The notes below the pieces were generated by a model that worked only from the letters and a program-made list of their open reading frames with translations, made no database searches and was not told where the DNA came from. This document shows positions 1-55,684 of a stretch of DNA of 55,684 nt, piece by piece (positions within the stretch are counted from its first letter, which is position 1; the number at the start of each line of letters is the position of its first letter). The translations under genes were made by a program, and so were the position numbers. Source of the DNA: Candidatus Segetimicrobium genomatis (GTDB lineage Bacteria > Sysuimicrobiota > Sysuimicrobiia > Sysuimicrobiales > Kaftiobacteriaceae); the NCBI GenBank assembly GCA_005882335.1, contig VBAP01000004.1, forward strand, positions 1 through 55,684, given 5' to 3'.

Positions 1-663
1 GATCAGGAGCGAAGCCACCGCCGCAGCGAGCCCCGCCACGACGGATCGTCTGCGCGTAAGCCACAACAGGACCGCCAGGACCAACAGGGTCGCGCCCAGC
101 AGGTGCACAATCGTCCGCACGGGCCAGACCGCGAGCAGGATGAACGACGCCAGAAGCGTGCCGGCGATGCTGCCCAGCGTGGACAGGGCGTAGAGTGCCC
201 CGGCGACGTTGCCGATGGTGGCCACGGCGTGCGCGCGCAGGCGGACCGCAAACGGCGACACCATGCCCATCACCGCGGCGGGCAGAAAGAACAGGACCGC
301 CGAGGCCGCGAACGGACCCGCCCGCGGCCCCAGGTCCGCAGCGGACAGCGAGGACAGCAGGCTCGGGGCCACCACGGGAATCGGGAATACCAGGGCCCCG
401 GCAAGGAAGATGACCCCCGCGAAGACGGCCGGCGCCGGCCAGCGGTCGGCGGCCCGACCGCCGGCGGCGTACCCCACCGCGAGCGCACCGAGGAACGCTC
501 CGATCAGACTCCCCCAGACATAGATAGAGTTGCCGAAGACCGGCGCAATGATGCGGCTGGCGATGATCTCCAGCGCCAGCAGGACAGCGCCGCTCACAAA
601 GACGGCAACTTCGAGAATAGGAGTCCCCTCGTGAGTCTTCCCGGTCTTCCCGGTCTTCCCGGT
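1..663 (-). CDS. Fused MFS-like/spermidine synthase family membrane protein, N-terminal part; runs off the window and start is uncertain
   Basis: Not in the ORF track. My minus-strand translation reads VAVFVSGAVLLALEIIASRIIAPVFGNSIYVWGSLIG...MGMVSPFAVRL...AGALYALSTLGSIAGTL, typical of this family. The frame is open from 663 to 1, with an in-frame TAG at 664-666; candidate start GTG at 597. Confidence 0.75.
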
Positions 664-757
664 CTACATACCTACTACCCTTGGGGATCGGTGCTCCAAC
701 ACGAATCTGTATTGGCTTGGAATGAGACAGGGGAGACTGGGTAGACCGGGGAGACTG
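635..757. repeat. Inverted tandem-repeat cassette, 9-mer GTCT family
   Basis: Left arm (GTCTTCCCG)x3+GTCTAC at 635-667; right arm GAGACAGGG GAGACTGGG TAGACCGGG GAGACTG at 724-757, abutting the clpB stop. Confidence 0.9.
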
Positions 758-3385
758 CTACTCTGACGTCACTCGAGCGGGTTCCTTCGCGATGATCTTG
801 ATCGCACCGCCGGCGTAGTCGACCGAGGCAACCTGCCCGGGGCGGAGGTCGGCGGCCAGCACCATCTTCGCCAGCCGGTTCTCGATCTCGCGCTGGATCA
901 GCCGCCGCAGCGGACGCGCGCCGAAATCGGGGCTGTAGCCCTCACGCGCCAGGTAGGCTTTCGCGGCGTCGCTCGTCACCAGACGAATCCTCTGCCCGTC
1001 CAGCCGCTGCTGGAGCTCGCGCAGCTGCAGCTCCACGATCGCCTTGATGTGCTCCTGCGAGAGCGGGTGGAAGACGATGATCTCGTCGATGCGGTTGAGG
1101 AACTCGGGCCGGAAGGCCTTGCGCACTTCATCCAGCACCTGCACCCGGGCCATCTCGAACTGCGCCGTGTTGCCGGGCTCCAGGCGCTGCAGGAACCGGC
1201 TCCCCAGGTTGCTGGTCATGATGATCACGGTATTCTTGAAATCGACCGCGCGGCCGTGGCCATCGGTCAGCCGGCCATCCTCAAGGATCTGCAGCAGAAT
1301 GTTGAACACGTCGCTGTGCGCCTTCTCGATCTCGTCAAACAGCACGACACGATACGGCCGCCGGCGCACCGCCTCCGTGAGTTGCCCGCCTTCCTCAAAT
1401 CCGACGTAGCCCGGCGGCGCCCCGATCAGGCGGCTGACGGTGTGCTTCTCCTGGTACTCCGACATGTCCAGGCGCACCATCGCCTCCTCGTCGTCAAACA
1501 AATGCCGCGCCAGCGCGCGGGCCAGCTCGGTCTTGCCCACGCCGGTCGGTCCCAGGAACAAGAATGAGCCGATGGGACGCCGCGGGTCTTTGAGGCCGGC
1601 GCGGGCGCGCCGGATCGCGTCGCTGACGGCCTGGACCGCATCCTCCTGGCCCACCACGCGCTCGTGCAGGCGAATCTCCATCTCCAGCAGCTTGCGCATC
1701 TCGCCTTCCAGCAGCCGGCTGACCGGGATGCCGGTCCACTTGCTGACTACCTCGGCGATATCTTCCGCATCCACCTCTTCCTTTAAGAGGCGCTGCCCCG
1801 AGGGCATCTGCCGCAGGGTGCTCTCCTGCGACGCCAGCTGGCGCTGCAGGTCGGGTAAGGTCCCGTAGCGCAGGCGCGCCGCCGTCTCCAGATCGGCCCG
1901 CCGCTCCGCGTCCTCGATCTGGTGGCGGATCTGTTCGATCTGCTCCTTGGTCAGCCGGATCGCCGCGATCCCCCGCTTCTCCTGCTCCCATTGCTGGCGC
2001 AGCCGGTTGCTGCCGTCTTTGAGCTTGGCAATCTCCTGTTCCAGCGTGGCCAGGCGATCGCGGCTCGCGGGGTCATCTTCCTTCTTCAGCGCTTCGCGCT
2101 CGATCTCCAGCTGCATGACCCGCCGGTCGATCTCATCGAGCTCGGTCGGCTTGCTGTCGATCTCCATGCGCAGCCGGCTGGCCGCCTCATCGATGAGATC
2201 GATCGCCTTGTCGGGGAGGAACCGGTCACTGATGTACCGGTCCGACAGCGTCGCCGCCGCGATGACGGCGGCATCGGTGATGCGCACGCCGTGGTGCACT
2301 TCGTAGCGCTCCTTCAACCCGCGCAGGATCGAGATCGTCTCCTCCACGGACGGCTCATCGACGTAGACGGGTTGGAACCGGCGCTCCAGCGCCGCGTCCT
2401 TCTCGATGTGCGCGCGGTACTCGTCCAGCGTGGTGGCCCCGATGGTGCGCAGTTCTCCACGCGCCAGCATTGGCTTGAGCATGTTCGCCGCATCGATCGC
2501 GCCCTCGGCGGCGCCCGCGCCCACCACGGTGTGCAGTTCGTCGATGAACAGGATGATCTCGCCGTCGCTCTCAGTGACCTCGCGCAGCACAGCCCGCAGG
2601 CGATCTTCAAACTCGCCGCGGTACTTCGTCCCGGCCACCAGCGCCCCCAGGTCCAGCTGGACCACGCGCTTGTGCTTGAGTCCTTCGGGGACGTCCCCGC
2701 GCATAATGCGCTGGGCCAAACCTTCCACGATGGCCGTCTTGCCGACGCCGGGGTCACCGATCAGGACCGGGTTGTTCTTGGTGCGGCGCGAGAGCACTTG
2801 CACGACGCGACGGATCTCATCGTCGCGGCCGATGACCGGATCGAGCTTGCCGGCGGCCGCCAGCCTGGTGAGATCGCGGCCGTAGCGCTCCAGCGCCTGG
2901 TATTTGCTTTCCGGATTGGCATCGGTGACCCGCTGCGAGCCTCGGACCTCCTGGATCGCCCGGTACAGGTGGTCCATCGTCACGCCGGCGCCGGCCAGCG
3001 TCTGCGCGGCCACCCCGTCGCCTCCGGCGGCGATCCCCAGCAACAGATGCTCCGTGCTCACGTACTCATCGTGTAGCCGCTGTGCCTCTGCCTGCGCGGT
3101 CTCCAGAGCCTGCCGCAGCCTGGGACTGATCATCAATCCCTCGGCCGGCTGCCCCTGGACCTTCGGCAGCCGATCCAGCTCCGCCCGCAACAGGCCCCGC
3201 AGCGCCGGCACATTAGCGCCGACCTTTGCCAGCACCTGGGGGACGATCCCGTCGGCCTGCTCGACCAGCGCGAGCAACAGATGCTCGCTGTCCATCTGCG
3301 CGTGCTGGGACGCGCGCACCGATTCCTGAGCTGACAAGATCGCCTCTTGTGCCTTCTCGGTGAATTTGTCGAACCGAATCGCCAT
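758..3385 (-). CDS. clpB: ATP-dependent chaperone ClpB
   Basis: 875 aa; N-domain repeats, two AAA+ modules ([12 protein letters not shown] and [11 protein letters not shown]) and a coiled-coil middle domain. Confidence 0.98.
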
Positions 3386-3409
3386 TTACTCCCTCAACAG
3401 CCGCTCAGA

Positions 3410-3497
3410 GTCTTCCCAGTCTACCCAGTCTCCTGCTACCCCTTGCGAACGTCGTTGACTGAGAAGACTGGGCGGACTGGGGAGACCGGGAAGACTG
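3410..3497. repeat. Inverted tandem-repeat cassette, 9-mer GTCT family
   Basis: Left GTCTTCCCA GTCTACCCA GTCTCCTGC; right AAGACTGGG CGGACTGGG GAGACCGGG AAGACTG, abutting the dnaJ stop. Confidence 0.9.
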
Positions 3498-4454: not shown

Positions 4455-4468
4455 GGGCTCGGACCTAC

Positions 4469-4555
4469 GGGACCAGGCGACCATGGGACCAGGCGACCCG
4501 CGAACATAAAGCGCGATGCAGGCTTGGTCCCTGGGTTCCTTGGTCCCTTGGTAGC
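4469..4555. repeat. Inverted tandem-repeat cassette, 8-mer GGGACCAN family
   Basis: Left GGGACCAG GCGACCAT GGGACCAG GCGACCCG; right TTGGTCCC TGGGTTCC TTGGTCCC TTGGTAGC, next to the grpE stop. Confidence 0.88.
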
Positions 4556-4559
4556 CGGC

Positions 4560-7006: not shown

Positions 7007-7064
7007 TTTCGAGTGACTCCTCTCTGTCCTGATTCGTGCTCTACTTGCTGCCCCTGTGCCTAAC

Positions 7065-7144
7065 GCAGTCGAGCAGTCGCGCGGTCAGGCGGTCACGAAA
7101 ACGTGCATGTCCGCGACTGCCCGACGGCGCGACAGCCCGACTGC
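7065..7144. repeat. Inverted tandem-repeat cassette, 8-mer GCAGTCGN family
   Basis: Left GCAGTCGA GCAGTCGC GCGGTCAG GCGGTCAC; right GCGACTGC CCGACGGC GCGACAGC CCGACTGC, 2 nt from the hsp20 stop. Confidence 0.88.
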
Positions 7145-7146
7145 GG

Positions 7147-7904: not shown

Positions 7905-7923
7905 CCGGCCACCTCCAAGGCGA

Positions 7924-8162: not shown

Positions 8163-8237
8163 GTGGTGGGGCGCCACCGCGCCCTCTCCAGGCGGAATAG
8201 CCCGCCGCCGCGGCGCGTTTCTGCCTGGATGACTCTT

Positions 8238-9158: not shown

Positions 9159-9262
9159 CGGAAACGGGAAGCGGGAAACAGGAATCCATAGACGGGCAAC
9201 ATCACAAACGAAACGGGGGGCTTTTGCAGCTCCCCGTTTCCTGTTTCCCGTTTCCGTCAGTT
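9159..9262. repeat. Inverted tandem-repeat cassette, 7-mer CGGGAAA family, with inner hairpin; likely bidirectional terminator
   Basis: Left CGGAAA CGGGAAG CGGGAAA CAGGAAT; right CGTTTCC TGTTTCC CGTTTCC; inner stem GAAACGGGGGGC/GCTCCCCGTTTC; lies between convergent trxB and trxA. Confidence 0.85.
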
Positions 9263-11399: not shown

Positions 11400-11495
11400 G
11401 CCGGTCTACGCCCGCACCGACACTTCCACTCCAGGCGGGGGGTCCCTCTCCGACCGTGGACGGAGGCCGTGGACGCGAGGCCTATAGTGTGACTG

Positions 11496-11559
11496 CGGAG
11501 CCACCAGGCCGCTAGTCCGGGCTTTTCAACCAGGTAAGCTAGGAGCGGCTTTTCGGTCG
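11496..11559 (+). repeat. 64-nt dispersed structured element, copy 1
   Basis: Ungapped match to 25264-25327 and 48386-48449; 43 of 64 positions invariant across the three. Confidence 0.85.
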
Positions 11560-11587
11560 AGGCGACCAGGTTCCGCGTGCGGCGGCG

Positions 11588-14102: not shown

Positions 14103-14195
14103 GAACTAACGGAAACGCGGGATCGCGGGATCGCGGGAACAACTGCTACAAACGCGAATAGGCGCGTTTCCGCGTTTCCCCGTTCCTGCGTTCCC
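14103..14195. repeat. Inverted tandem-repeat cassette, 8-mer GCGGGAAC family
   Basis: Left CGCGGGAT CGCGGGAT CGCGGGAA; right GCGTTTCC GCGTTTCC CCGTTCCT GCGTTCCC; after the gcvPB stop. Confidence 0.88.
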
Positions 14196-17465: not shown

Positions 17466-17477
17466 CCTCGCCCCCAG

Positions 17478-17567
17478 AGTTGGAAAGTTGGAGAGTTGAA
17501 AAGTGGAAGAGTCAACGCATCTGGCGCTTCAACTCTCCAACTCTTTGACTCTCCAACTCTTCAACTT
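17478..17567. repeat. Inverted tandem-repeat cassette, 8-mer AGTTGGAA family
   Basis: Left AGTTGGAA AGTTGGAG AGTTGAAA AGTGGAAG; right TTCAACTC TCCAACTC TTTGACTC TCCAACTC TTCAACTT, containing the gcvT stop. Confidence 0.92.
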
Positions 17568-18658
17568 CTCCTGTAGAACGGCAGCTTCACGACTTTTGCT
17601 CCCGTGGGCCGGCCGCGGATGTCCACCTGCAGCGGCATGCCGACGGCGGCGTACTCGCGCGCGACGTAGCCCATGCCAATACTCTTGCGGACCCACGGCC
17701 CGAAGGTTCCACTGGTCACCTGGCCGGTGGGGCGACCCCCCGCCAGCAACGCATAACCATGGCGGGGCACGGCGCGCTCCATCATCTCAAATCCTACAAG
17801 CTTTCGGACCGCGCCGCGTTCCTTCTGGGCCAGCAGGGCCTCCCGCCCGATGAACTCACCTTTCTCAAACTTTATCGTCCATCCCAGCGGTGCCTCGAGC
17901 GGCGTGGTCGTCTCATCGATATCGTTCCCGTAGAGCATGTAGCCCGCTTCCAGCCGCAGCGTGTCCCGGGCGCCCAGCCCCGCCGGCACGAGACCGTCAG
18001 GGCCGCCGGTATCCATCAGCGCGCGCCACAGCACGGGCGCTGCGTTCCACTCGCAGGCGATCTCAAATCCATTTTCCCCGGTGTATCCGGTGCGTGCGAC
18101 CAGGCAGGCCAGCCCCGCCACCGCCATCCCCTCGGCGAGATGAAAGTAGGCCAGCTGGGTGAGATCGGCCCCGGTGAGCCGCCCCAGAATTGTCTCCGCC
18201 TTCGGTCCCTGCAGCGCCAGCAGCGCCAGTTCAGCGGAACGGTTGCGAGCCGTCGCGGCGCGGGTGTGCTCGGCGATCCACAGGAAGTCTCGCTCGGTAC
18301 GGGTCGCATTGACGACGAGGAGAAACCGGTCGCCGTGGAGCCGGAATACTGTGAGGTCGTCGATGATTCCGCCCGACGGCAGGCACATCGGCGAGTACAG
18401 GCCCCCGCCCGGGGTCAGCCGGCTGGCGTCGTTGGTGACCAGGCGCTGCACCGATTCCAACGCGCCGGGGCCGAAGATCTCTACCTCCCCCATGTGGGAA
18501 ACGTCAAACAGGCCGGCCGCCGTGCGCACCGCGTGGTGCTCCTCGACGATCCCGGCGTACTGCACCGGCATCTCCCATCCTCCAAACTCCACGATCCGGG
18601 CTCCGGCGGCCCGATGCACATCGTACAGGCTGGTGCGCTTGAGGTGTGTGATGGCCAT
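17561..18658 (-). CDS. gcvT: Aminomethyltransferase (glycine cleavage T protein)
   Basis: GLFDVSHMG, RTGYTGENGFE and GLGARDTLRLEAG. Confidence 0.97.
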   Translation of the reverse strand: MAITHLKRTSLYDVHRAAGARIVEFGGWEMPVQYAGIVEEHHAVRTAAGLFDVSHMGEVEIFGPGALESVQRLVTNDASRLTPGGGLYSPMCLPSGGIIDDLTVFRLHGDRFLLVVNATRTERDFLWIAEHTRAATARNRSAELALLALQGPKAETILGRLTGADLTQLAYFHLAEGMAVAGLACLVARTGYTGENGFEIACEWNAAPVLWRALMDTGGPDGLVPAGLGARDTLRLEAGYMLYGNDIDETTTPLEAPLGWTIKFEKGEFIGREALLAQKERGAVRKLVGFEMMERAVPRHGYALLAGGRPTGQVTSGTFGPWVRKSIGMGYVAREYAAVGMPLQVDIRGRPTGAKVVKLPFYRRS

Positions 18659-19324: not shown

Positions 19325-19406
19325 CGCGCCCCACCTGTACAGCGGACTCAGCGCAGCCGACCGCTCTTCCTTCCACGAATCACAAGGGTTATCCTTGGCG
19401 TCGCGA

Positions 19407-19477
19407 GGGAAGAGGGAAAAGGGAAGAAGGAACACGGGGCTGTTCCCTCTTCCTTCTTCCCTCTTCCTTATTCCTTT
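19407..19477. repeat. Inverted tandem-repeat cassette, 7-mer GGGAAGA family
   Basis: Left GGGAAGA GGGAAAA GGGAAGA AGGAACA; right TTCCCTC TTCCTTC TTCCCTC TTCCTTA TTCCTTT, containing the decarboxylase stop. Confidence 0.88.
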
Positions 19478-20976: not shown

Positions 20977-21065
20977 AGAACGTGGAACGCACCATGCAGA
21001 ACGCAGACTGATCAACTAACACCGCCGTCCTTCTGCGTGCTGCGTTCTGTGTTCTGCGTTCTGCT
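20977..21065. repeat. Inverted tandem-repeat cassette, 7-mer AGAACGC family
   Basis: Left AGAACGT GGAACGC ACCATGC AGAACGC; right TTCTGCG TGCTGCG TTCTGTG TTCTGCG TTCTGCT. Confidence 0.82.
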
Positions 21066-21686: not shown

Positions 21687-21769
21687 AGGAAAAAAGGAAG
21701 AGGGACGAAGGAAGAGCGGACAGACCCTCGGCTTCTTCCTTCTTCCTTCTTCCCTCTTCCCTCTTCCTA
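21687..21769. repeat. Inverted tandem-repeat cassette, 7-mer AAGGAAG/CTTCCCT family
   Basis: Left AAGGAAG AGGGACG AAGGAAG; right CTTCCTT CTTCCTT CTTCCCT CTTCCCT CTTCCTA. Confidence 0.85.
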
Positions 21770-22105: not shown

Positions 22106-22117
22106 CTGAATCTCCTC

Positions 22118-22216
22118 AATCTTCGCAATCCTCGCGATCTACGCTATCTACACCATGCAGCCCCTTATGGTCCCATGTCGGTAGATTGCGGAGATTGCGC
22201 AGATTGCGTAGATCTT
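22118..22216. repeat. Inverted tandem-repeat cassette, 9-mer AGATTGC family
   Basis: Left AATCTTCGC AATCCTCGC GATCTACGC TATCTACAC; right GTAGATTGC GGAGATTGC GCAGATTGC GTAGATCTT, lying inside the MFS coding tail. Confidence 0.88.
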
Positions 22217-23859: not shown

Positions 23860-24267
23860 CTACCCTACAGAACGGGCGTTCCGTGAGACGCCTTCCCCCT
23901 CGACCCCCCAGCTGACGATCCGCCTGGGCCTGATGCGAAACATTTGTGGGGCGAACCTTCGCATCAGCCGCTCGCCGCCCGTCTCCAGAATTTCGGCCAC
24001 ACCCCGGATCTCGATCCCGCGGGCCTTCCAGGGGTTCACTGAGGGCACGTCGTCGATCACCAGCGCTACCCGGGGGTTACCGCGCACATCGCGGAACTTC
24101 TTGCGCTTCGCGAAGTCGTAGCCGCCGATATCGATCGTGTCCGTCTCGCCATTGTACCGAAAGGCGACCGGCACCACGTGGGGTTCGCTGTTCGGGCCGA
24201 CGGTGGCCAGCCGTCCGAGGAGCTGGCCGCGTAGATAGGCGATCTCCGCGAGCGTAAAGGCGCTCAT
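23860..24267 (-). CDS. PPOX-class (split-barrel, putative F420-dependent) oxidoreductase
   Basis: LGRLATVGP..EPHVVPV.F...KKFRDVRGNPRVALVIDD...RGIEIRG. Confidence 0.88.
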   Translation of the reverse strand: MSAFTLAEIAYLRGQLLGRLATVGPNSEPHVVPVAFRYNGETDTIDIGGYDFAKRKKFRDVRGNPRVALVIDDVPSVNPWKARGIEIRGVAEILETGGERLMRRFAPQMFRIRPRRIVSWGVEGEGVSRNARSVG

Positions 24268-24285
24268 CGCTCACCTCTCGTCGTT

Positions 24286-25176
24286 CTATCGCTCGGCAAC
24301 AGTCACGCTGAGTTCCTTCGCCGCGCCGCCGCGGAGGAGACGGACGCGCAGCGACGTCCCGATCTTTTCAGATGTCAGCTGCGATGCAATGTCGTCGTGA
24401 GTGCGGACCGGTGTCCCGTCAACTGCGACAATCACGTCCCCCAGCACCAGCCCCCCACGTTCCGCGGGGCTGCCAGATTCCACTGACACCACGATCAACC
24501 CGACTCGCTGCCCCACCTGCTGTTCCAGCGTGGCCGGCAGGCGCACCGGGTGGGCCCCAATGCCCAGATACCCCCGGCGGATTTTCCCGTGGGTCAGCAG
24601 CGCGCCCGCCACCTTGCGCAACGTCGGCACCGGAACCGCTATCGCGGCACGCCGCAGGAGTCCCGCCGTGTTCATTCCCAGAACCGCGCCGCCCGCGTCC
24701 ACCAGGGCACCGCCAGAAAATCCGATTCCCGGCGTCACATCGGTTTCAAGGTATCGGTCGAACTCTCCGCCCGTGGGGGCCCGCCAGGCCTCGCCCGCGG
24801 CGCTGATAATTCCGAGCCGCGCCCGAACCGTGCGGCCGGGCCGCGTCACGGCCACCACCAGCTGGCCGACTTTCGCCTGATCACCGCCGCTCCAGGACGG
24901 CACGGTCAGACCGGATGCCTGTGCACGCAGCACCGCGATATCGGTACCTGGGTCCCGACCGACCAGGGTGGCAGCCACGAGCTGCCCATCAGGTAGGCCG
25001 ACGCGGATCTCGTCCTCTTGCTCAATGACGTGGTCCGCCGTCACGATCGTCCCGTCCGCCGCCCAGACGATTCCGCTGCCGGGGGCATGCCGCCGGGCCT
25101 CGACCCGCACCACAGAGGGCCCGACCCGCTCCGCAATGCCGGCAATTCCGTTGGAGATTTCGCTCAAGATCTGCAT
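24286..25176 (-). CDS. S1C/HtrA-like serine protease with PDZ domain
   Basis: TADHV (His), TDIAVL (Asp), GFSGG (Ser) and a C-terminal PDZ; no signal peptide seen. Confidence 0.9.
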   Translation of the reverse strand: MQILSEISNGIAGIAERVGPSVVRVEARRHAPGSGIVWAADGTIVTADHVIEQEDEIRVGLPDGQLVAATLVGRDPGTDIAVLRAQASGLTVPSWSGGDQAKVGQLVVAVTRPGRTVRARLGIISAAGEAWRAPTGGEFDRYLETDVTPGIGFSGGALVDAGGAVLGMNTAGLLRRAAIAVPVPTLRKVAGALLTHGKIRRGYLGIGAHPVRLPATLEQQVGQRVGLIVVSVESGSPAERGGLVLGDVIVAVDGTPVRTHDDIASQLTSEKIGTSLRVRLLRGGAAKELSVTVAER

Positions 25177-25263
25177 CACATCTACCACCTCCGTTGATGG
25201 TGAGCATACGCTGGCCGGCGCGTCGCCCGCATCGCCCGTTTGGGTAGGCCGTAGACGTAACTC

Positions 25264-25327
25264 CGGAGCCACAGGGCCGCAATTCCAGGCTTTGGAACCA
25301 GCGCAGCCAGGAGCGGTTTTTTGGTCG
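25264..25327 (+). repeat. 64-nt dispersed structured element, copy 2
   Basis: Ungapped match to copies 1 and 3. Confidence 0.85.
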
Positions 25328-25357
25328 ACGCGCACTCACGTGTCGCGCCAGTGGAGG

Positions 25358-34796: not shown

Positions 34797-35564
34797 ATGG
34801 CCGAGTTCTTGCGATCTATCCAGGGCAGCGACGGACCGGCGGACGCCGCCGAGCCAGAAGTCCGGCTCGCCGTGTATGACTCGCCGCTGGCCGCGCCCAG
34901 GGTGGTGTCGCTACGCGGGCGCGAATTCCATGAGTTCGTGGGCGACCTTGCGGCACGCACATACAACTTCGGGCGAGAACGCGGCGGCCGCATCCCGTAC
35001 ATCGTCATCCGGGAGATCATCGAGAACCTGATCCACGCATACTTCCAGGGCGCCGTGATCAGCATCTTGGACGACGGGAACACGATCCGCATCTCTGACC
35101 AGGGACCAGGCGTTCCGGACAAGGAGAAGGCGCTGCAACCCGGGTTCACGACCGCCACGCCCCAGATGCGCCGTCTCATCAAAGGCGTGGGTTCGGGCCT
35201 GCCCGTGGCCAGGGAGCAGCTGGCATTCCTCGGCGGCGCGATCGCCATTGACGACAACCTCACCCGCGGCACTGTCGTCACGCTGACCGTCGGCGCCGAG
35301 AGTCCAAAGGTGTCCCCTCAAGTGCTGGAGCACCCGAGCCGGCCCGAACCCACACCCCGACAAAAGAAGGTCCTCCTGCTCATCGCCGAGCTGGGATCTG
35401 CCGGACCATCGGCGATCGCGAAAGAACTCGCCGTCAGCCAGAGCACGGCCTACCGCGAACTCCATCTCCTGGCGCGCTGGCGGCTCGTGGACAGCAAGGG
35501 TGGTGGAAAGCGCACGCTCACGGAAGAAGGCATCGCGGTCCTGGGCGAGGTCTTTAAACCGTAA
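34797..35564 (+). CDS. GHKL/HATPase-fold ATP-binding protein with C-terminal winged helix
   Basis: N-box REIIEN, G1 DQGPG, GFTT, GVGSGL; w[12 protein letters not shown]...[18 protein letters not shown]; GGAGG RBS; ends 38 nt before dnaA. Confidence 0.88.
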
Positions 35565-35602: not shown

Positions 35603-36899
35603 ATGGCCGTCGACACGTCATCTGCGGTCGGCATCTGGCAGGAAGCGCTCCGCCGCATCGAGAGCCGGCTGAGCAAGCCGACATACGAGTTGTACCTCAA
35701 GAACATGACGCCACTGGCGGTGCGCGGGGACACCTTTGTGTTTTCCGTGCCCAGCCGCCACGCCAAAGAGTGGATCGAGTCGCGACACGCCAGCCTGATA
35801 CACAGCGCGTTGCAGGAAGTGCTGGCGCGCGCCATCACGATTCAACTGACCGTGGTGGAAGACAGCCCGGCCGCACCGGCCCCGGCGGCGCCCGTGCGCG
35901 GACCGGACGGACTCCCGCTGAGCCCCAAGTACACGTTCGATACGTTTGTCATCGGTACGGGCAACCGCTTTGCGCACGCGGCCGCGATGGCCGTGGCGGA
36001 AGCGCCGGCCCGCGCCTACAACCCCTTGTTCATCTACGGCGGCGTGGGTCTCGGCAAGACCCACCTCCTGCAAGCCATCGGGCACCACGTCGTTCACCGT
36101 CAGCAGTTACACCGCGTTGCCTACATCAGCAGTGAGAAGTTTACGAACGAACTGATCAACGCCATCCGGGACGACCGGACGCTGGAGTTCCGCACCAAGT
36201 ACCGGAGCGTCGACGTCCTGCTCATCGATGACATCCAGTTTCTGGCCGGGAAAGAACGGACGCAGGAGGAGTTCTTCCACACCTTCAACACGTTGCACGA
36301 AGCCAGCCGGCAGATCATCAGAGGACCGCCTGCGCTCCCGTTTCGAGTGGGGCCTCATCGCCGACATCCAGCCGCCGGATCTGGAGACGCGCATCGCCAT
36401 TCTGCGCAAGAAAGCCGAACTCGACGGCTTGAGCGTCCCAGACGAAGTTGCGGAATTCATCGCCCAACGCATCCAATCCAACATCCGCGAACTCGAGGGT
36501 GCGCTCGTCCGCGTCGTCGCCTATGCCGGCCTGACCCGCGCCCCCATGACGGTGGAGCTCGCCGCGGAGATCCTCAAAGAATTGCTCCCGGCCTCCGCCA
36601 GCCGACCCGTTACGATCCAGATGATTCAGAAAGCCGCGGCCGAACACTTCGGACTGCGCGTAGAGGAAATGCGGGCAAAGCGTCGCACGAAAGGGATCGC
36701 CTTCCCCAGACAGGTGGCCATGTACCTGGCCCGCGAACTGACAGACGCCTCACTCCCGCGGATCGGCGAGGAGTTCGGCGGCCGCGACCACACGACTGTG
36801 ATGCATGCCTGTGACCGCGTAAAAGAAGCGCTTACGAAGGATACGTATCTCGCCGCGGGCCTGAAGAAACTCGTAGACACTTTACACAACTCCGGGTGA
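35603..36899 (+). CDS. dnaA: Replication initiator DnaA; as given, frameshifted by a deletion at 36320/36321
   Basis: Domains I-III ([19 protein letters not shown]) to ...RQII, then in another frame EDRLRSRF...[11 protein letters not shown]; the conserved [13 protein letters not shown] segment is absent. Confidence 0.95.
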
Positions 36900-38194: not shown

Positions 38195-38313
38195 GGGTTT
38201 TCCATGTCTACAGGGTCTACCGGGTCCCAGAACGTGGCGCGTCCAGCGGGCCGCGCGAACAGGGGTTAGGTAGACCCGGAAGACATGGTAGACCAGGGAG
38301 ACCCGGAAGACCG
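38195..38313. repeat. Inverted tandem-repeat cassette, 9-mer GTCT family
   Basis: Left ATGTCTACA GGGTCTACC GGGTCCCAG; right GGTAGACCC GGAAGACAT GGTAGACCA GGGAGACCC GGAAGACCG. Confidence 0.88.
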
Positions 38314-39662: not shown

Positions 39663-40125
39663 AGCGATCCTGCGCTCCGCGGCCACAGCGCTCGGTGTGG
39701 AACGGGCGGCGCACGAGGCGCTGATCGCTGAGATGTGGCCGGAGATCGCAGGCCGGGAGGCGGCTGCGCACGCACACCCTGCCGAGTTGCGCGGAACCAC
39801 ACTGCTCGTAGATGTGGAACCCGGGTTGTGGGTGCAGGAATTATCGGCCCGGCGCGGGCAGTTCGTGGGAGCCATCAACCGCCGTCTGGGGGGCCGCGTC
39901 GTCGCCGAGATCCGGATCCGACCGGGCCGCGGTGCGGTGGTGGAGCCTGGGCCGGGTGGCGCGGCACCGGTCGAGGGCGCTGGGCCAGAACTATCAGCGC
40001 AAGAGCTGAGCACGATTGACCAGACTGTCGCGGAGATTCCCGACCAGGAGTTGCGTGAAGCCGCGCGGCGGGCGATGCACAGCGAGATGATGTGGAGGAA
40101 GCGCCGCGCGGAGAGTAAGCAGTAG
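39634..40125 (+). CDS. dciA: DUF721 / DciA-family protein
   Basis: W..IAG..AAAHA.P..LR..TL.V......W.QEL pattern, located after recF; start approximate (TTG). Confidence 0.82.
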   Translation: MKRSALTSLRAILRSAATALGVERAAHEALIAEMWPEIAGREAAAHAHPAELRGTTLLVDVEPGLWVQELSARRGQFVGAINRRLGGRVVAEIRIRPGRGAVVEPGPGGAAPVEGAGPELSAQELSTIDQTVAEIPDQELREAARRAMHSEMMWRKRRAESKQ

Positions 40126-40220
40126 CCAGTCACCAGTAGCCACTAGCCGGCGACCCGTAGGTAGACCAAGAATCAGACGCTGGTCGTTACTGGCGACCGG
40201 CTACTGGATACCGGCTACCT
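40121..40220. repeat. Inverted tandem-repeat cassette, 7-mer AGTAGCC family
   Basis: Left AGTAGCC AGTCACC AGTAGCC ACTAGCC GGCGACC, containing the dciA stop; right GTTACTG GCGACCG GCTACTG GATACCG GCTACCT. Confidence 0.87.
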
Positions 40221-42651: not shown

Positions 42652-42726
42652 GCGGGAACGCGGGAACGCGGGACAATACTCAGCCAGGCATTTGCTGTTT
42701 CGCGTTCCCGCGTTCCCGCGTTCCCG
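42652..42726. repeat. Inverted tandem-repeat cassette, 8-mer GCGGGAAC family
   Basis: Left GCGGGAAC GCGGGAAC GCGGGAC; right (CGCGTTCC)x3; between gyrB and gyrA. Confidence 0.92.
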
Positions 42727-45197: not shown

Positions 45198-45277
45198 CCG
45201 GGAACGCGGGAAAGGACGAATGCGGGAGCACGACGGCATGCGAAGTCGCGAATCACGAATCACGAATCACGGTTCAC
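45198..45277 (+). repeat. Partial 8-mer arm plus unpaired heptamer array
   Basis: CCGGGAAC GCGGGAAA after the gyrA stop; (GAATCAC)x3 GGTTCAC at 45250-45277; no inverted partner seen. Confidence 0.65.
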
Positions 45278-45945
45278 GCCCCTGGCGGCACCTTCTCACC
45301 GCGTTGGGCGTGATCGGCGCCACCGTGGCGCTCCATGAGGGGGCGCATGCCCTCGTCACCGCGCGCGCAGGCGGGAAGGTGAGGGAGATCGGCATCGGCT
45401 TTGGCCCTCCTCTGTTCCGCCTCCGGGTGCGCCATCTGTCGGTCGTGGTGCGGATGCTGCCGCTAGGCGGGTACGCCGCGGTGGATCCAGAGCAGATCCC
45501 GCCACGCCGCAGGATCCCCATGCTGTTGGCCGGCCCCTTGGCCAATATCGCTGCCGGACTGCCGCTGATGCTGGCGTTCCGACGCCATCCTGTGGAGATC
45601 CCTAACGACGGCAGGCGCGTCGGCCTCACCGGGTTCGCGGGTACCCTGACGGCCCTGATCCGGGCCGCGGCGCAGGGTCCCGGGTCCATTGCCCGGCTGG
45701 CCGGTTCCATGAACGTCGGCCTGGGCCTCGCGAATCTGCTCCCGGTCTACCCGCTGGACGGCGGCCACGTAGTGATGAGTATCATGGAAGAGCGCGGTGT
45801 TCCGCGCCAGACCCGCATCAGATTCGCCCGCTGGACCGCCGCCTTGTTCATCATGCTGGCGCGGGCGGCGATGCTCGGCGACCTGCGCCGGCTTTCAGCC
45901 GGCGCGGGAACGGGGGAACGCGGGAACGCGGAATCGCGATTCTAG
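45238..45945 (+). CDS. Small site-2 protease (M50) without PDZ or CBS
   Basis: HEGAH, GFGP...LPLGGY and NLLPVYPLDGGH; start uncertain. Confidence 0.85.
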   Translation: MRSRESRITNHGSRPWRHLLTALGVIGATVALHEGAHALVTARAGGKVREIGIGFGPPLFRLRVRHLSVVVRMLPLGGYAAVDPEQIPPRRRIPMLLAGPLANIAAGLPLMLAFRRHPVEIPNDGRRVGLTGFAGTLTALIRAAAQGPGSIARLAGSMNVGLGLANLLPVYPLDGGHVVMSIMEERGVPRQTRIRFARWTAALFIMLARAAMLGDLRRLSAGAGTGERGNAESRF

Positions 45946-45994
45946 ATGCGGTTGTTTCCGCGTTCCCCCGTTCCCGTGTTCCCGTAGGTTTCCG
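45904..45994. repeat. Inverted tandem-repeat cassette, 8-mer GCGGGAAC family
   Basis: Left GCGGGAAC GGGGGAAC GCGGGAAC GCGGAATC, inside the CDS; right TGTTTCCG CGTTCCCC CGTTCCCG TGTTCCCG. Confidence 0.88.
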
Positions 45995-48376: not shown

Positions 48377-48385
48377 GCAAAACTT

Positions 48386-48449
48386 CGGAGCCACTCAGCC
48401 GTTAGTCCAAGTATTGCAACCCAGGTAGCTAGGAGCGGTTGTTTGGTCG
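48386..48449 (+). repeat. 64-nt dispersed structured element, copy 3
   Basis: Ungapped match to copies 1 and 2; starts 9 nt after the binding-protein stop. Confidence 0.85.
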
Positions 48450-48472
48450 TCGCACCCAGGGATGTGTATCAG

Positions 48473-48509
48473 GGGTCCCTCACGGACACGGCAACGTCGT
48501 GAGGGACCC
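48473..48509 (+). terminator. Strong stem-loop between binding protein and permease (attenuating or mRNA-stabilising)
   Basis: GGGTCCCTCACG...CGTGAGGGACCC 12-bp stem followed by GGCATTTTT. Confidence 0.6.
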
Positions 48510-48529
48510 GGCATTTTTCCGCTGATGTC

Positions 48530-50253: not shown

Positions 50254-50302
50254 CACGTGCACGGAAGTGCGTCTACCTTGGTCTTCTAAGGAGACGTTGT
50301 TG

Positions 50303-52226: not shown

Positions 52227-52296
52227 CATGAGGAGGACTCCTCCGCGCCCTGCGCCAACCCATATCAGTGCATTTCCCGGAGGACTGAGATCTGTC

Positions 52297-52704
52297 ATGC
52301 AGTGGCGGTCTGCCAGCGACCTTTTCGACCGTTTGCGCCGCATGGTCCGGGCGCTGGACTTGAACTACGTCGATGTGCGGCGGATCCGGTGCGTCCGGGT
52401 AACGGGGTCGCGAGCCAATGCCCTCGCGCGCATCTGGGGGCTGCCGCCGGTATTTCAGGATGCCCTGCGCCTCCGACCCCATTACGTGATTGAGTTCATG
52501 GTGCCGGCGTTCGACCGGCTCCCCCGCGAGGAACAGGATCGCGTGATTATCCACGAACTCCTGCACATCCCGCGGACGTTCAGTGGCGGGATCCGGCCGG
52601 AACGCTCGCCCTCGATGAGCATCAACCGGCACACCGTAGAGCGGTATTATCGGCAGTACCTGGCCGCGATGCGCCAGCGAAACGGCACCACCCCACCCGC
52701 GTAG
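52297..52704 (+). CDS. Putative HExxH metallopeptidase
   Basis: ARIWGLP...YVIE...FDRL...VIIHELLHIP..FSGGIR; GGAGG upstream. Confidence 0.8.
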   Translation: MQWRSASDLFDRLRRMVRALDLNYVDVRRIRCVRVTGSRANALARIWGLPPVFQDALRLRPHYVIEFMVPAFDRLPREEQDRVIIHELLHIPRTFSGGIRPERSPSMSINRHTVERYYRQYLAAMRQRNGTTPPA

Positions 52705-52712
52705 CTCGCCCG

Positions 52713-53321
52713 TTGCCTACCCGTATTTATCTCATCCGGCACGGCGAATCCACTTGGAATGCGCAGCGTCGCTGGCAAGGCGTCGCGGACGCGCCGCTGT
52801 CCGACGCCGGACGGGCCGAGGCGACACTCCTGGCGGACGCGTTGCACACCGTGCCACTGCGGGCTGTGTATTGCAGCCCTCTGCGGCGGGCAGTAGACAC
52901 GGCAGCCGTGGTCGCCGCCGTGCACCGGCTGGACGTGATACCGGTGGCGGATTTGCGCGAGATCGCGTTTGGCGTCTGGGAGAGCCTGCTCGCCGAAGAG
53001 GTGGAGCAGCGGTTTGGGGCGCTCCTGAAGGAGTGGTGGGAGCGGCCGGACCAGGTGCAGATCCCGGGGGCGGAGCCCCTGGAGGCCGCGCGCGCGCGAG
53101 TCGCGGCCGCCATTCATGGGATCGTGGCCCGCCACGAAGACGGTCAGGTGGCCGTCGTTGCCCACGGCGGCGTGAACAAGCTGCTCGTGCTGACGCTGCT
53201 GGACGCGCCGCTGTCCTCATACTGGCGGATGCGCCAGGACAATGCCTGCGTCAACATCGTCGAGTTTGACGGCGATCGCGGACGCGTGTTGGTACTGAAT
53301 GACACGACGCACCTGAAGTAG
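52713..53321 (+). CDS. Histidine phosphatase family protein
   Basis: LIRHGES, SPLRRA, LREI.FG.WE and VAHGG. Confidence 0.93.
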   Translation: MPTRIYLIRHGESTWNAQRRWQGVADAPLSDAGRAEATLLADALHTVPLRAVYCSPLRRAVDTAAVVAAVHRLDVIPVADLREIAFGVWESLLAEEVEQRFGALLKEWWERPDQVQIPGAEPLEAARARVAAAIHGIVARHEDGQVAVVAHGGVNKLLVLTLLDAPLSSYWRMRQDNACVNIVEFDGDRGRVLVLNDTTHLK

Positions 53322-53393
53322 CGGGATCGCGCAAGCGCGGGAACGCGACGGCGAGCCTCAGGACGGCAATGCGCGTTCCCCTGTTCCCGCGCG
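53321..53393. repeat. Degenerate inverted tandem-repeat cassette, 8-mer GCGGGAAC family
   Basis: Left GCGGGATC GCGCAAGC GCGGGAAC; right GCGTTCCC CTGTTCCC. Confidence 0.72.
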
Positions 53394-53451
53394 CCGCCCC
53401 GAGCGAAGCGTGGGGGTTCCCGTCATATCCCGTAAGTTATAATCTCAATCA

Positions 53452-54351
53452 ATGGTTGAGATTGACGCCCAGACAACCCTGGTCGGCATCATCGGCGATC
53501 CCGTGGCACACTCGTTGTCGCCGCGGATGCATAACGCGGCGTTCAACGCGCTGCAGATGAACTGGCGGTACGCCGCGTTTCGCGTGCCTGCGGCCGGGTT
53601 GAGCCAGGCGCTGCGTGGGGTCGTGGCGCTGGGGATGGCCGGGGTCAACGTGACCATCCCCCACAAGGAATCCGCTGCAGGAGTGCTCGATGAACTGGAT
53701 GACCTGGCGCGCCAGATCGGTGCCGTCAACACCGTGGGCGTGTCCGGAAGCCGGTTGCTGGGGTTCAATACTGATGGAGCGGGGATGCTCGATGCGTTGA
53801 CGTCCGATGGAGGAATGCCGGCAGCGGGTCGCCGCTGCGTTGTGGTCGGCGCCGGCGGCGGCGGACGGGCCGCGGCGTTTGCGCTTGCGGCCGCGGGCGC
53901 CTCGCGGGTCACCGTGCTCAACCGTACCGAACGCAAGGCGCAGAGTCTCGCCGACGCGGTGCGCCGTGCCGCTCCGGGTTGCCGGGTCGAGCCGGCTCCA
54001 CTCCTGGCGGACGTGGTGGAGCGTGTTGTCGGAGATGCCGAGATCGTCGTTCATGCCACCGCGGCGACGATGTCCGCGGCGATGGGCGGTGGCGGAGGCC
54101 GTGCCGACTGGCTGCAGGTCCTGGCCCGCCGCCTGCATCGGGGCATGGCCGTGCTCGACATGGTGTACACTCCGGCGTGGACGGAGTTGCTCGGCGCGGC
54201 GAAGGCGGCCGGGGCGACCGCAGTGAGCGGTCTCTCCATGCTGGTCTTCCAGGGAGCCCGCAGCTTCCAGGTGTGGACAGGACGCCCGGCGCCGCTCGAT
54301 GTGATGCGGCAAGCCGTCGGACTAACGGCGGTTGGAGAGTTGAAGAGTTGA
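53452..54351 (+). CDS. aroE: Shikimate dehydrogenase
   Basis: HSLSP.MHN, NVTIPHKE, NTDG, GAGGGG, DMVY and GLSMLVFQG; TATAAT 8 nt upstream of the ATG. Confidence 0.96.
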   Translation: MVEIDAQTTLVGIIGDPVAHSLSPRMHNAAFNALQMNWRYAAFRVPAAGLSQALRGVVALGMAGVNVTIPHKESAAGVLDELDDLARQIGAVNTVGVSGSRLLGFNTDGAGMLDALTSDGGMPAAGRRCVVVGAGGGGRAAAFALAAAGASRVTVLNRTERKAQSLADAVRRAAPGCRVEPAPLLADVVERVVGDAEIVVHATAATMSAAMGGGGGRADWLQVLARRLHRGMAVLDMVYTPAWTELLGAAKAAGATAVSGLSMLVFQGARSFQVWTGRPAPLDVMRQAVGLTAVGELKS

Positions 54352-54455
54352 AGAGTCACGGAAGTTGGAAAGTTGGAGAGTTGGAAAGTTGGAGAGGCGA
54401 CGGCGTGTTCAAGGGTCGTTACTTTCCAACTGTTCAACTTTCCAACTCTTCAACT
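54331..54455. repeat. Inverted tandem-repeat cassette, 8-mer AGTTGGAA family
   Basis: Left GTTGGAGA GTTGAAGA GTTGAAGA .. GTTGGAAA GTTGGAGA GTTGGAAA GTTGGAGA, containing the aroE stop; right TTCCAACT GTTCAACT TTCCAACT CTTCAACT. Confidence 0.92.
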
Positions 54456-54477
54456 CTGGCGTGGGGTGTCTAACGGG

Positions 54478-55599
54478 ATGCTGCGCTTTCTAACGGCCGG
54501 GGAATCTCATGGGAAGGCGTTGACCGCTGTCGTGGAGGGACTGCCGGCCGGGCTTGGGGTGAGCGAGGACGCCATCAACGCGCAGATGATCCGCCGCCAG
54601 CTTGGCTACGGCCGGAGTGTGCGGATGAAGTTGGAAGCAGACCACGTGGAGATCGTGTCAGGCGCGATGGGCGGGCAGACCATCGGAGGACCAGTCGCGC
54701 TGCGCATCGAGAACCGCGATGCCAGGGCCGATGAACCGCCCCTGACTCGACCGCGCCCCGGGCATGCCGATCTCGTCGGCATTATGAAGTTCGGTTTTGA
54801 CGATGCCCGGCGCGCCCTGGAACGCGCCAGCGCGCGAGAGACCGCGGCCCGGGTGGCGGTCGGCGCCCTGTGCCGGACCCTGTTGAACGAGTTCGGCATC
54901 CAGGTGTGCAGCCACGTGGTGGAGATCGGCGGCGTCGCGATCCGCACACGGCCGGAGCGCTGGGACGACATTCCATCGCTCGCGGAGGCCTCCGAGCTCC
55001 GATGTGTCGATGCCGGCGCGGAAGGGGAGATGCGCGCGGCGATCGATGATGCGCGCCAACGCGGCGACACCCTGGGCGGCGTGTTCGAGGTCATCGCCCT
55101 GGGCGTCCCGCCGGGATTGGGCAGCTATGTGCACTGGGACCGGAAGCTGGACGGTCGCCTGGCCCAGGCGGTGATGTCCATCCACGCCGTCAAGGGGGTC
55201 GAGGTCGGCCCAGGATTCGAGATGGCACGCACGCCGGGCTCGCGCGCCCACGATGAGATCTTCTGGACCCGCGGGCGCGGCTTCTTTCGAGAGACCAACC
55301 GCGCCGGCGGCACCGAGGGCGGGGTCACCACCGGCGCGCCGGTGGTGGTGCGGGGAGCGATGAAGCCGCTGTCTACGCTGATGTCTCCGCTGCGATCTGT
55401 CGACATTAAGACCAAGGAAGCGATCACCGGCGCGGTCGTCCGCAGCGACGTCTGTGCGGTACCGGCCGCCGGCGTTGTGGGAGAGTCCATGGTGTGTTTC
55501 GTGCTGGCCGACGCCTTGTTAGAGAAGTTTGGGAGTGACAGTCTCGCCGATATCAAGCTGGCATACGAGGCGTATCTCCGACGGATCAAGGAGATGTAA
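54478..55599 (+). CDS. aroC: Chorismate synthase
   Basis: TAGESHG, RPRPGHAD, ERASARETA and RSDVCAVP. Confidence 0.97.
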   Translation: MLRFLTAGESHGKALTAVVEGLPAGLGVSEDAINAQMIRRQLGYGRSVRMKLEADHVEIVSGAMGGQTIGGPVALRIENRDARADEPPLTRPRPGHADLVGIMKFGFDDARRALERASARETAARVAVGALCRTLLNEFGIQVCSHVVEIGGVAIRTRPERWDDIPSLAEASELRCVDAGAEGEMRAAIDDARQRGDTLGGVFEVIALGVPPGLGSYVHWDRKLDGRLAQAVMSIHAVKGVEVGPGFEMARTPGSRAHDEIFWTRGRGFFRETNRAGGTEGGVTTGAPVVVRGAMKPLSTLMSPLRSVDIKTKEAITGAVVRSDVCAVPAAGVVGESMVCFVLADALLEKFGSDSLADIKLAYEAYLRRIKEM

Positions 55600-55612
55600 T
55601 CGCCAGCAGAAC

Positions 55613-55684
55613 GTCTACCATGTCTACTATGTCTTCTATGTCTCCAAGGTCCACACGCACCTCAGGTCTGCGTAGGTAGACCTA
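55613..55684. repeat. Inverted tandem-repeat cassette, 9-mer GTCT family, cut by the window edge
   Basis: Left GTCTACCAT GTCTACTAT GTCTTCTAT GTCTCCAAG; the right arm begins TAGGTAGACC. Confidence 0.8.

Follow-up and report, generated by a model that had tools for sequence, protein, structure and literature searches.

Array hairpins in a replication-origin region

The window analysed here, by which we mean the whole 55,684-nt stretch (55.7 kb) of contig VBAP01000004.1 from Candidatus Segetimicrobium genomatis, is the replication-origin region of an uncultured soil bacterium with 65% G+C. In the Pfam gene annotation, one side of the window carries dnaA, dnaN, recF, dciA, a remA-like gene, gyrB, and gyrA, and the other side carries clpB, dnaJ, grpE, dnaK, hsp20, trxB/trx, and gcvTHP. 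Our subject is a set of short repeat elements at 19 sites among these genes (E1 to E19). In its complete form, such an element consists of a tandem array of a 7-, 8-, or 9-nt unit, a spacer, and an array of the reverse-complement unit, together forming a hairpin of ~100 bases. The 19 sites use about 11 units, and over 55.7 kb they amount to one element per 2.9 kb.

A first-pass annotation, made from the letters alone, had described these sites as one two-arm architecture built from many different units. Tandem Repeats Finder (TRF) located arrays of period 7, 8, or 9 at 19 of 19 sites in the window, with 2.6–8.1 copies per array, and TRF together with reading of the sequence confirmed two-arm elements at 18 of them, each with 3–5 units, a unique spacer, and 3–5 reverse-complement units. 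A strict detector was defined by TRF arrays of period 6–10 with at least 2.5 copies and a partner at most 90 nt away, whose consensus had to be a rotation of the reverse complement with at most two mismatches. The window yielded 34 arrays, with 11 inverted pairs among them and not one direct pair, versus 172 arrays and one inverted pair in 1,080,360 control bases (84 loci from other bacteria). The seven further two-arm sites are looser pairs, in which one arm is too degenerate for TRF and is visible as a long inverted repeat. Across the strict and looser pairs, spacers of 10–58 nt separate the arms. When the local inverted repeats of the window are ranked by length, the elements supply 24 of the top 25, often in several registers, and predicted fold energies of the 17 complete two-arm elements range from -34 to -61 kcal/mol. 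The view of one architectural class with many unit families is upheld by these results.

The placement of the elements at gene 3′ ends, within operons, was also borne out. Measured from the upstream stop codon, the gap to the element is -49 to +19 nt (median about 1), and the distance from the element end to the next start codon is 3–58 nt, every element stopping short of the next gene’s start. The flanking genes are on the same strand for seventeen elements and convergent for one (E5), and one further element is at the window edge; no divergent spacer of the window contains any. Stop or last codons fall inside seven elements, meaning that protein C-termini have been rewritten by them.

The elements are not assembly artefacts, because independent contigs carry them: E3 is spanned with no differences by contigs from three soil runs of different studies, E13 and E16 are covered with at most one difference by contigs of further runs, and a 13-kb Joint Genome Institute (JGI) contig (L173), 99.6% identical to the window, has E12 to E14 letter for letter. 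Short-read unitigs end at the elements, and in practical terms the elements break short-read assemblies and mislead open reading frame (ORF) callers, with false long ORFs traversing them.

Unit families

Within a family the core is constant and the linker bases are free, and orthologs keep most cores while linkers and spacers drift. The GTCTNC family has three linker bases and includes E1, E2, E12, and E19. E1 (635–757) lies between the clpB stop (758–760) and the next gene, and consists of (GTCTTCCCG)x3.4, a 58-nt spacer, and (GAGACTGGG)x3.8, with fold energies of -58/-72 kcal/mol. E2 (3409–3497) is located between the stop of a dnaJ-like gene and the clpB start, with (AGTCTWCCC)x2.6–4 in the first arm and, after the spacer, (GACTGGGAA)x4.6 in the second. 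Situated 3′ of the dnaN stop, E12 (38195–38312) comprises (GTCTACNGG)x2–3, a spacer of ~41 nt, and (NNGRAGACC)x4.6. E19 (55613–55684) begins 13 nt 3′ of the aroC stop and is cut by the window end, which leaves (GTCTACYAT)x3.4, the spacer, and the start of a GTAGAC arm.

The GGGAAC family, with two linker bases, includes E6 and E14 to E17. E6 (14103–14192), 3′ of the gcvPB stop, starts with GGAAACG and continues with (CGCGGGAT)x2.9, a 24-nt spacer, and (CGCGTTTC/CGTTCC)x3.8. E14 (42652–42726; -51 kcal/mol) follows the gyrB stop and precedes the ribosome-binding site of gyrA, and has (GCGGGAAC)x2.8, a 27-nt spacer, and (CGCGTTCC)x3.2. E15 (45198–45271), 3′ of the gyrA stop, is the site at which the first-pass annotation had noted the lack of a second arm, and it is indeed a composite of two GGGAAC-type units and, after them, an unrelated (CGAATCA)x3.3, with no complementary arm and no hairpin (-14 kcal/mol). 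The first arm of E16 (45903–45985), (CGCGGGAA)x3.6, is within the 3′ end of an M50 peptidase gene; a 21-nt spacer and (TGTTCCCG)x4.1 follow, ending 10 nt 5′ of a GNAT gene. E17 (53321–53400; -39 kcal/mol), upstream of aroE, is a degenerate member with about two units per arm, starting at the stop codon of a gene for a histidine phosphatase.

The AGTTGR family, again with two linker bases, is represented by E7 and E18. E7 (17476–17571) has an 11-nt overlap with the gcvT stop and is separated from gcvH by 10 nt; it is composed of (AGTTGGAR)x4, a 21-nt spacer, and (CAACTCTY)x5. E18 (54331–54455) overlaps the aroE stop by 21 nt; its first arm, (GTTGGAGA/GTTGAAGA)x8, forms two sub-arrays parted by GTCACGGA, and a 24-nt spacer leads to (ACTTTCCA/ACTCTTCA)x4.4. 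This left arm (54331–54396) is double, with an E7-like array ending in GAGTCACGG and then a second full array, and E18 perhaps represents an element that is nested within half of another or fused with it. The GRRGGAA family consists of E8 (19405–19476), which overlaps the stop of a pyridoxal phosphate (PLP) decarboxylase gene with (GAGGGAA/GAAGGAA)x4, a 10-nt spacer, and (TTCCYTC)x4.9, and of E10 (21687–21768), with (GAAGGAA/GAGGGAC)x~4, a spacer, and (CTTCTTC/CCTCTTC)x5.3.

The remaining elements each have a unit of their own. E3 (4469–4552), between the grpE stop and the dnaJ start, has (GGGACCAG/GCGACCAT)x3.8, a 24-nt spacer, and (CTTGGTCC)x3.8, and E4 (7065–7145; -59 kcal/mol), between the hsp20 stop and the dnaK start, has (GCAGTCGN)x4, a 14-nt spacer, and (CGCGACTG)x4.2. 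E5 (9160–9255), between the convergent trxB and trx stops, contains (GGAAACG)x3.6 and (CCCGTTT)x3.3 on either side of a 48-nt spacer with an 8-bp GC stem. E9 (20977–21064), 3′ of the stop of an HD-domain gene, pairs a degenerate (GAACGCA)x~4 across its spacer with (TTCTGCG)x4.9. In E11 (22109–22213), made of (AATCTTCGC)x4.6, a 33-nt spacer, and (AGATTGCGC)x3.4, one entire arm is part of an MFS transporter gene, whose 3′ end the element overlaps by 49 nt. Finally, E13 (40120–40218) holds the dciA stop within the first unit of (CAGTAGC/CAGTCAC)x4, and after a spacer ends in (TACTGGMGACCGGC)x2.2. Apart from these elements, positions 24261–24294 contain a lone, weak CGCTCAT array (x4.7) with no inverse partner, across the 18-nt junction of two minus-strand genes.

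Gain, loss, and slippage among relatives

The history of the elements can be followed in relatives, whose contigs were retrieved with the GrpE and RemA-like proteins as probes. A GyrB probe of genome contigs gave, among the matches listed, only 59%-identical phyla; the nearest GyrB proteins are labelled as Armatimonadetes/Armatimonadota metagenome-assembled genomes (MAGs) from soil. The nearest genomes are ‘Bacillati bacterium ANGP1’ NP_4 (L170) and NP_1 (L171), and MAG079 (L172) was compared as well. Divergence from the window at four-fold sites is 0.005 for L173, about 0.10 for NP_4, 0.27 for L174, 0.27–0.50 for L175, 0.3–0.5 for NP_1, and about 0.46 for MAG079. In a tree of the remA–gyrB region, the window, L173, and L174 form clade A, and L175/176 and L178–180/L168 form clade B.

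Some elements are old. E12, E14, and E16 are common to clades A and B with homologous borders, and are retained across about 20% nucleotide divergence, and E1, E2, and E5 are common to the window and NP_1. Others (E3, E4, E13, and E15) are restricted to the window’s clade. The filled and empty states of orthologous sites, a comparison that had been proposed at the outset, are telling in this regard. In more distant relatives the orthologous operon spacers measure 0–30 nt. For example, the gyrB–gyrA spacer is 96 nt in the window versus 0–27 nt in L167, L168, L083, and L084, and the grpE–dnaJ spacer is 105 nt in the window and 5 nt in NP_1, with the two genes overlapping in MAG079. E3 is a clean gain of ~115 nt between stop and start relative to NP_1 and MAG079, and its junctions against these two empty sites show no target duplication of the kind that a miniature inverted-repeat transposable element (MITE) would leave. 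At the dnaJ–clpB site of E2, the genes overlap in MAG079, NP_1 has a GTCTACTTG-type element, and NP_4 has another sequence even though its flanks differ by only 5%. The hsp20–dnaK spacers of NP_1 and MAG079 lack E4, and the empty NP_1 spacer contains the E4 unit GACTGCG. As a separate observation, the hsp20–dnaK stretch of NP_4 (L170, 149–2437) is only 82.5% identical to the window, versus 95% in the neighbouring 5 kb, and its spacer is unrelated; this stretch is probably a recombination patch.

Similar variation is seen on the dnaA side. E12 has an identical GTCTNC core and other linkers in L174, L175, and L178–180, and is absent in L167, L081, L182, and L184. E13 has a diverged ortholog in L174, whose right arm is (GGCTGAC)x3 with a last unit that coincides with the ancestral dciA end CGCTGAC, and its site in clade B contigs is empty, with a 31-nt ancestral tail. 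E14 is orthologous in L175 and cut to a single terminal GTTCCC unit in L178/L179. In MAG049, E15 has CGAGTCA in place of CGAATCA in each of its three units, and the E15 site in L175 is an empty 32-nt spacer. On the heat-shock side, E5 is orthologous in NP_1 with one unit fewer and corresponds to only a short G-rich run in MAG079, while E1 has four units in the window versus three in NP_4. These alignments show that the elements are insertions into near-empty spacers, which have staggered ages, can be deleted, turn over rapidly among close relatives, and shift in copy number by whole units, as slippage would produce.

Sequence drift within the elements is uneven. Between the window and NP_4, E3 differs at 2/30 positions in one arm, 9/25 in the spacer, and 7/30 in the other arm, at or above the four-fold-site rate. 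In E16, most GGGAAC/GTTCCC cores are preserved in the orthologs of MAG049 and L175, with other linkers and another spacer. Counted over the window, MAG049, and the right arm of L175, 17 of 20 units have an intact core, and only the left arm of L175 has drifted, to GGAAAC/GGAAGC. Given the four-fold divergence of L175, the cores of E16 outlast neutral decay. In addition, E1 and E2, which are 2.7 kb apart, have linkers CCG/CCA and CGG/TGG in the window and NP_4, and TTG/TTA and TAA/CAA in NP_1. Because both arms of both elements changed alike, independent point mutation is ruled out for these linkers.

Copying between loci

The families have a fixed polarity. In a scan of 185,579 species genomes, pairs in which the GGGAAC arm comes first were found at 69 loci, many of them in ANGP1 and related MAGs, and others in Planctomycetota, Acidobacteriota, Chlamydiota, Bacteroidota, and Elusimicrobia. 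GTTCCC-first pairs were found at 14 loci, all of them short 2+2 palindromes in other organisms and none in the focal lineages. Every GTCTNC, AGTTGG, GTGATT, GGTCGTA, and GGGATAAG pair seen also has a single polarity. The 8-kb surroundings of the GGGAAC-first loci contain more pairs with other units, many of which are the window’s own families.

Arms also recur at separate loci. A 371-nt metagenome contig has an exact 38-nt match to the E3 right arm together with 8 nt of the E3 spacer; it also has the inverse arm and then different flanks. Within the window, E7 and E18 are alike in arm and first spacer bases. The E3 arm twin, the sharing between E7 and E18, the concerted change of E1 and E2, and the fixed polarity together show what is best described as apparent copying between loci and exchange between elements. 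A conserved MITE body was considered and ruled out, since the spacers are unique to each element and none is shared. The sole repeat of the window that is not an array is an unrelated 79-nt family with three copies (11492–11570, 25260–25338, and 48382–48460) that are 73–75% identical.

The two arms of an element are not exact mirrors of each other, as the first-pass annotation had noted. With the real order of units, the summed score of arm pairing is 13.69, and shuffled unit orders score 13.81 ± 0.11. Because shuffled units pair no worse, complementarity between the arms is limited to the unit consensus, and there is no sign of the mirrored unit variants that would be left by compensatory selection or by a recent inverse copy of a whole arm.

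These results bear on the possibility of purely local growth, in which a native word is duplicated by slippage and its inverse is copied by intra-strand template switching (quasipalindrome correction), with no transfer between loci. The last unit of E13 in L174, coinciding with the ancestral dciA end, the E4 unit already present in the empty NP_1 spacer, and the E5 arrays, which extend an ordinary stem, are what such growth would leave behind. The unit is unique within the window in 6 of the 19 elements, the spacers are unique as well, and there are published accounts of template switching that both generates hairpins and makes them homogeneous (PMC8794818, PMC5941160). However, the multi-member families hold one fixed polarity, an exact 38-nt twin of an E3 arm exists at another locus, E1 and E2 change in concert, and the mirror order expected after a recent whole-arm inverse copy is missing. 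We therefore regard purely local growth as doubtful.

About 0.5 Mb of hairpin-rich loci was fetched, and the genes framed by arms in these loci are mostly ordinary ones (ribosomal protein S8, GNAT, AzlD, and MOSC), with in addition a Phd/PIN pair in an acidobacterium and a REP-associated tyrosine transposase (RAYT; REP, repetitive extragenic palindromic) on a Chloroflexi contig. In the acidobacterial case (L086, 6573–7557; Acidobacteriota, CAVVUL010000001.1), a Phd/YefM–PIN toxin–antitoxin pair lies between GGGAACTG and CAGTTCCC arrays ~820 nt apart. In the other (L159, 4285–5007; Ardenticatenaceae, JACKBU010000018.1), an IS200-like transposase of RAYT type (PF01797) and its neighbours are framed by 2+2 GTTCCC..GGGAAC palindromes. 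Homologues of this transposase are named ‘REP element-mobilizing transposase RayT’, and the polarity of the palindromes is opposite to that in the window; the L159 set is a classical REP/RAYT system whose REP is built from two tandem units. No RAYT (PF01797) was found in the window or in the screened focal-lineage loci.

RNA-level properties

The first-pass annotation had offered, as one explanation, selection for long RNA hairpins that set transcript stoichiometry. Terminators, attenuators, or 3′-end stabilisers that adjust operon product ratios would be in keeping with the high predicted stability of the folds, with the placement directly 3′ of stop codons, with the setting of E5 between convergent genes and around a classic GC stem, and with the persistence of E12, E14, and E16 across relatives. 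If the RNA were the selected form, the sense strand should stand out. Instead, the summed fold energy of the 19 elements is -845.6 kcal/mol in sense versus -840.3 kcal/mol in antisense, and ungapped arm-to-arm alignments contain 10 mismatches that are G–U in sense RNA, 21 that are A–C (G–U only in antisense), and 18 of other kinds; any lean of the transition mismatches is towards the antisense strand. The strands thus show no asymmetry of the kind expected from a functional RNA. The drifted E16 left arm of L175 is an example, as GGAAAC against GTTCCC makes an A–C mismatch in sense RNA, and the order of unit variants is neither mirrored nor compensatory.

Features of termination were also sought. 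No U-tracts are present behind the elements, and terminator-like sites are not enriched (12 versus 10.2 ± 3.8 expected, in 20 kb); E8 alone of the elements scores as terminator-like, because its unit is T-rich. An Rfam search gave no matches at gathering thresholds. Relatives have the same conserved operons with 0–30-nt spacers and no elements, and a strong terminator would be harmful between formerly overlapping genes such as grpE/dnaJ and gyrB/gyrA. A single metatranscriptome contig of 151 nt joins grpE, E3, and dnaJ, and would thus represent read-through; metatranscriptome coverage of the organism is about 1–3x, with no reads in the gcv region. The elements do not resemble intrinsic (Rho-independent) terminators or structured RNA under selection, and nothing points to selection on an RNA hairpin. 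Host selection for RNA hairpins is, on this evidence, unlikely.

Origin of the elements

We think it somewhat likelier true than false that the elements are dispersed, non-coding, DNA-level, self-homogenising array hairpins of a REP- or MITE-like kind, which behave as selfish repeats, arise as templated copies, and are tolerated 3′ of stop codons. New copies would be templated from existing elements, either through a trans-acting nuclease or transposase or through polymerase template switching, and a few single-member families were perhaps born from local sequence. Homogeneity would be kept by replication slippage and by exchange between arms and between elements. Survival would be limited to the strip between the stop codon and the next ribosome-binding site, because insertion there alone breaks nothing, and a self-closing hairpin would keep the stop and the next start only about 14–25 nt apart in space. 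Any effect on the host would be incidental, perhaps as a block to 3′ exonucleases, an RNase III site, or a stall of the terminating ribosome, and the elements would not be dedicated terminators. Of the mechanisms proposed in the first-pass annotation, a MITE-like element with slipping arms fits best, as judged from the empty orthologous spacers, the changes by whole units, and the recurrence of arms with fixed polarity; the target duplication of a MITE is missing at E3.

Several observations weigh against this reading of the elements as templated, dispersed copies. The unique spacers and the E3 junctions lend no apparent support to classical cut-and-paste or copy-and-paste transposition. No transposase, nuclease, or reverse transcriptase is tied to the elements in the window and fetched loci (no whole-genome search was made), and no gene-bearing copy was found in the focal lineage within the roughly 0.5 Mb of fetched loci. 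Clustering of families among neighbours is weak, with four adjacent same-family pairs (permutation p = 0.09). Hints of local birth exist in the three cases discussed above (E13, E4, and E5), and import and local birth may both occur. Conservation of the cores could reflect a functional motif, and the RNA evidence is a single low-depth contig, possibly DNA carry-over.

The first-pass annotation had also raised a dedicated generating mechanism. We regard it as decidedly unlikely that the arrays are made and kept uniform by a previously undescribed, dedicated trans-acting activity. Such an activity could take two forms. In one, a short template would direct the addition of units to the two 3′ ends at a break, which would then be joined, giving array, filler, and inverse array from a single event. 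This version fits because of the fixed family polarity, the unmirrored arms of similar length, the unique filler, the lack of a target duplication, and the concerted E1/E2 linkers. In the other, a small nuclease or transposase would recognise the family core and copy half-sites, with RAYT and REP, or Ssn and the Neisseria NTS repeats, as analogues.

Comparison with described repeats

Geobacter metallireducens, with a genome of about 4 Mb, has about one array pair per 75 kb on that genome size, versus one per 2.9 kb in the window, and its units are different. Its paired opposite-strand sites include 24 pairs of four tandem octanucleotides (GTTGCTYN), 21 pairs of three 8–9-mers (TCTCCGTS[Y]), and 8 pairs of five heptanucleotides (MTYCTGA), with the partner at a variable distance and one pair between proB and proA (Aklujkar et al. 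2009, BMC Microbiol 9:109, PMC2700814). As in our window, there are several intergenic classes of paired sites per genome, a two-arm design, and mixed 7-, 8-, and 9-nt periods; gain and loss, polarity, and position relative to stop codons are not reported there (PMC2700814). In Xanthomonas campestris and X. axonopodis, 70–75 convergent pairs of GGGAATC arrays per genome are transcribed and mostly intergenic between same-strand genes, and their length varies between species while their type is preserved (Rehm et al. 2015, PLoS One, PMC4692102). In contrast to the window, they belong to a single unit family with a single 7-nt period at a density about 25 times lower and are discussed as G-quadruplex formers, and that paper reports neither stop-codon anchoring nor a filled-versus-empty comparison (PMC4692102). 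A GGGAACC pair related to the Xanthomonas type was found in Noviluteimonas (L140).

The window’s elements have what defines such paired tandem sites, namely 7–9-nt arrays, an opposite-strand partner, multi-copy intergenic classes, and a constant convergent orientation, with E15 failing on the partner. The first-pass annotation knew of no mixed 7/8/9-mer families with a two-arm design, and this claim of novelty falls because the elements match a kind of repeat that has been described; the observation itself stands. The architecture, including mixed periods, is already in print, and its origin and function are not.

Two explanations that have been advanced for these published repeats can be applied to the window. 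The Geobacter sites were guessed, without a test, to be binding sites of IHF/HU type (PMC2700814), and arrays bound by a nucleoid protein or global regulator on head-to-head cores would explain why the hexamer cores (GGGAAC, GTCTNC) are conserved when linkers and inter-arm pairing are not, and why polarity is fixed and the strands are equivalent. On the other hand, the 11 or more different cores of a single 56-kb window would call for many proteins, and periods of 7–9 bp set successive sites on different helix faces. The elements are located at gene ends and not in promoter regions, with none in a divergent spacer, and they are gained and lost between close relatives with no change in gene content, all of which makes protein binding very improbable. 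As a general explanation, a role as G-quadruplex or i-motif elements, as Rehm et al. read the GGGAATC arrays, is hardly credible, since, even though (GCGGGAAC)n has GGG runs 5 nt apart and GGGAATC forms a quadruplex in vitro (PMC4692102), only GGGAAC/GGGACC-type arms have at least four G-runs of three or more, and most families (AGTTGGAG, GTCTACTAT, CAGTAGC, AATCTTCGC, and GAACGCA) share the architecture and lack G-runs.

Other described repeats also share features with the elements. Cyanobacterial short tandemly repeated repetitive (STRR) sequences are tandem heptanucleotide arrays in intergenic DNA that are abundant in some lineages. They differ from the window’s elements in being mostly single arrays of period 7 only. 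In Nostoc, for example, which has GGGGA(C/T)T arrays, only a small number of paired repeats occur (PMC4692102). REP sequences and their hairpin-forming doublets (REPINs), which accompany RAYT transposases, are abundant extragenic hairpin repeats of two inverted halves (Bertels & Rainey 2011, PMC3116915; Di Nocera et al. 2013, PMC3733652). Like the elements described here, they occur between co-transcribed genes and 3′ of stop codons, are lineage-specific, and are copied within genomes. In contrast, each of their halves is one imperfect palindrome of 20–40 nt that bears a terminal GTAG or CGTC tag, and not an array of 3–5 units, a genome has one or few families, and the cognate RAYT defines the system. 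A tag of the GTAG type was looked for in the window: CGTAGGT occurs five times (four of them in elements) versus 3.05 expected and is not at a constant end, and two of the four copies in elements are 6–8 nt 5′ of a start codon, like a weak ribosome-binding site. The Neisseria NTS repeats and the Ssn single-strand nuclease (Chenal et al. 2025, PMC11893778) have a different repeat architecture and are similar in part, being a precedent for dispersed short repeats partnered with a small site-specific nuclease of the same genome.

Other features of the window and its relatives

Positions 36250–36400 of the window, within dnaA, are without 38 nt (TCACCAGCGACCGACCACCTAAGGAGATCCCCACGCTG) that are present in L173 and all relatives. 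Because these 38 nt are missing, dnaA is split into overlapping frames (35603–36814 and 36228–36899), and the gap is probably an assembly error or a defective variant. Directly 5′ of dnaA is a GHKL-ATPase/winged-helix gene (34797–35564), which is kept in all fetched relatives (L081–L084, L167). In L083 (11944–15165), gyrA encodes 1073 residues and includes an intein (PF14890).

Implications

Paired tandem-oligonucleotide hairpins have been present in genome papers since 2009, where they were read as regulator sites or quadruplexes, and the lineage of the window has them at about 25 times the previously reported density. Given relatives that are graded in divergence (0.005, 0.1, 0.3, and 0.45 at four-fold sites), the births, deaths, slippage, and concerted change of such elements are readable from alignments. 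In this lineage it becomes testable whether the elements are selfish or useful, whether their polarity is imposed by the way they are made, and how insertions of 100 nt are tolerated in operons as closely coupled as grpE–dnaJ and gyrB–gyrA.

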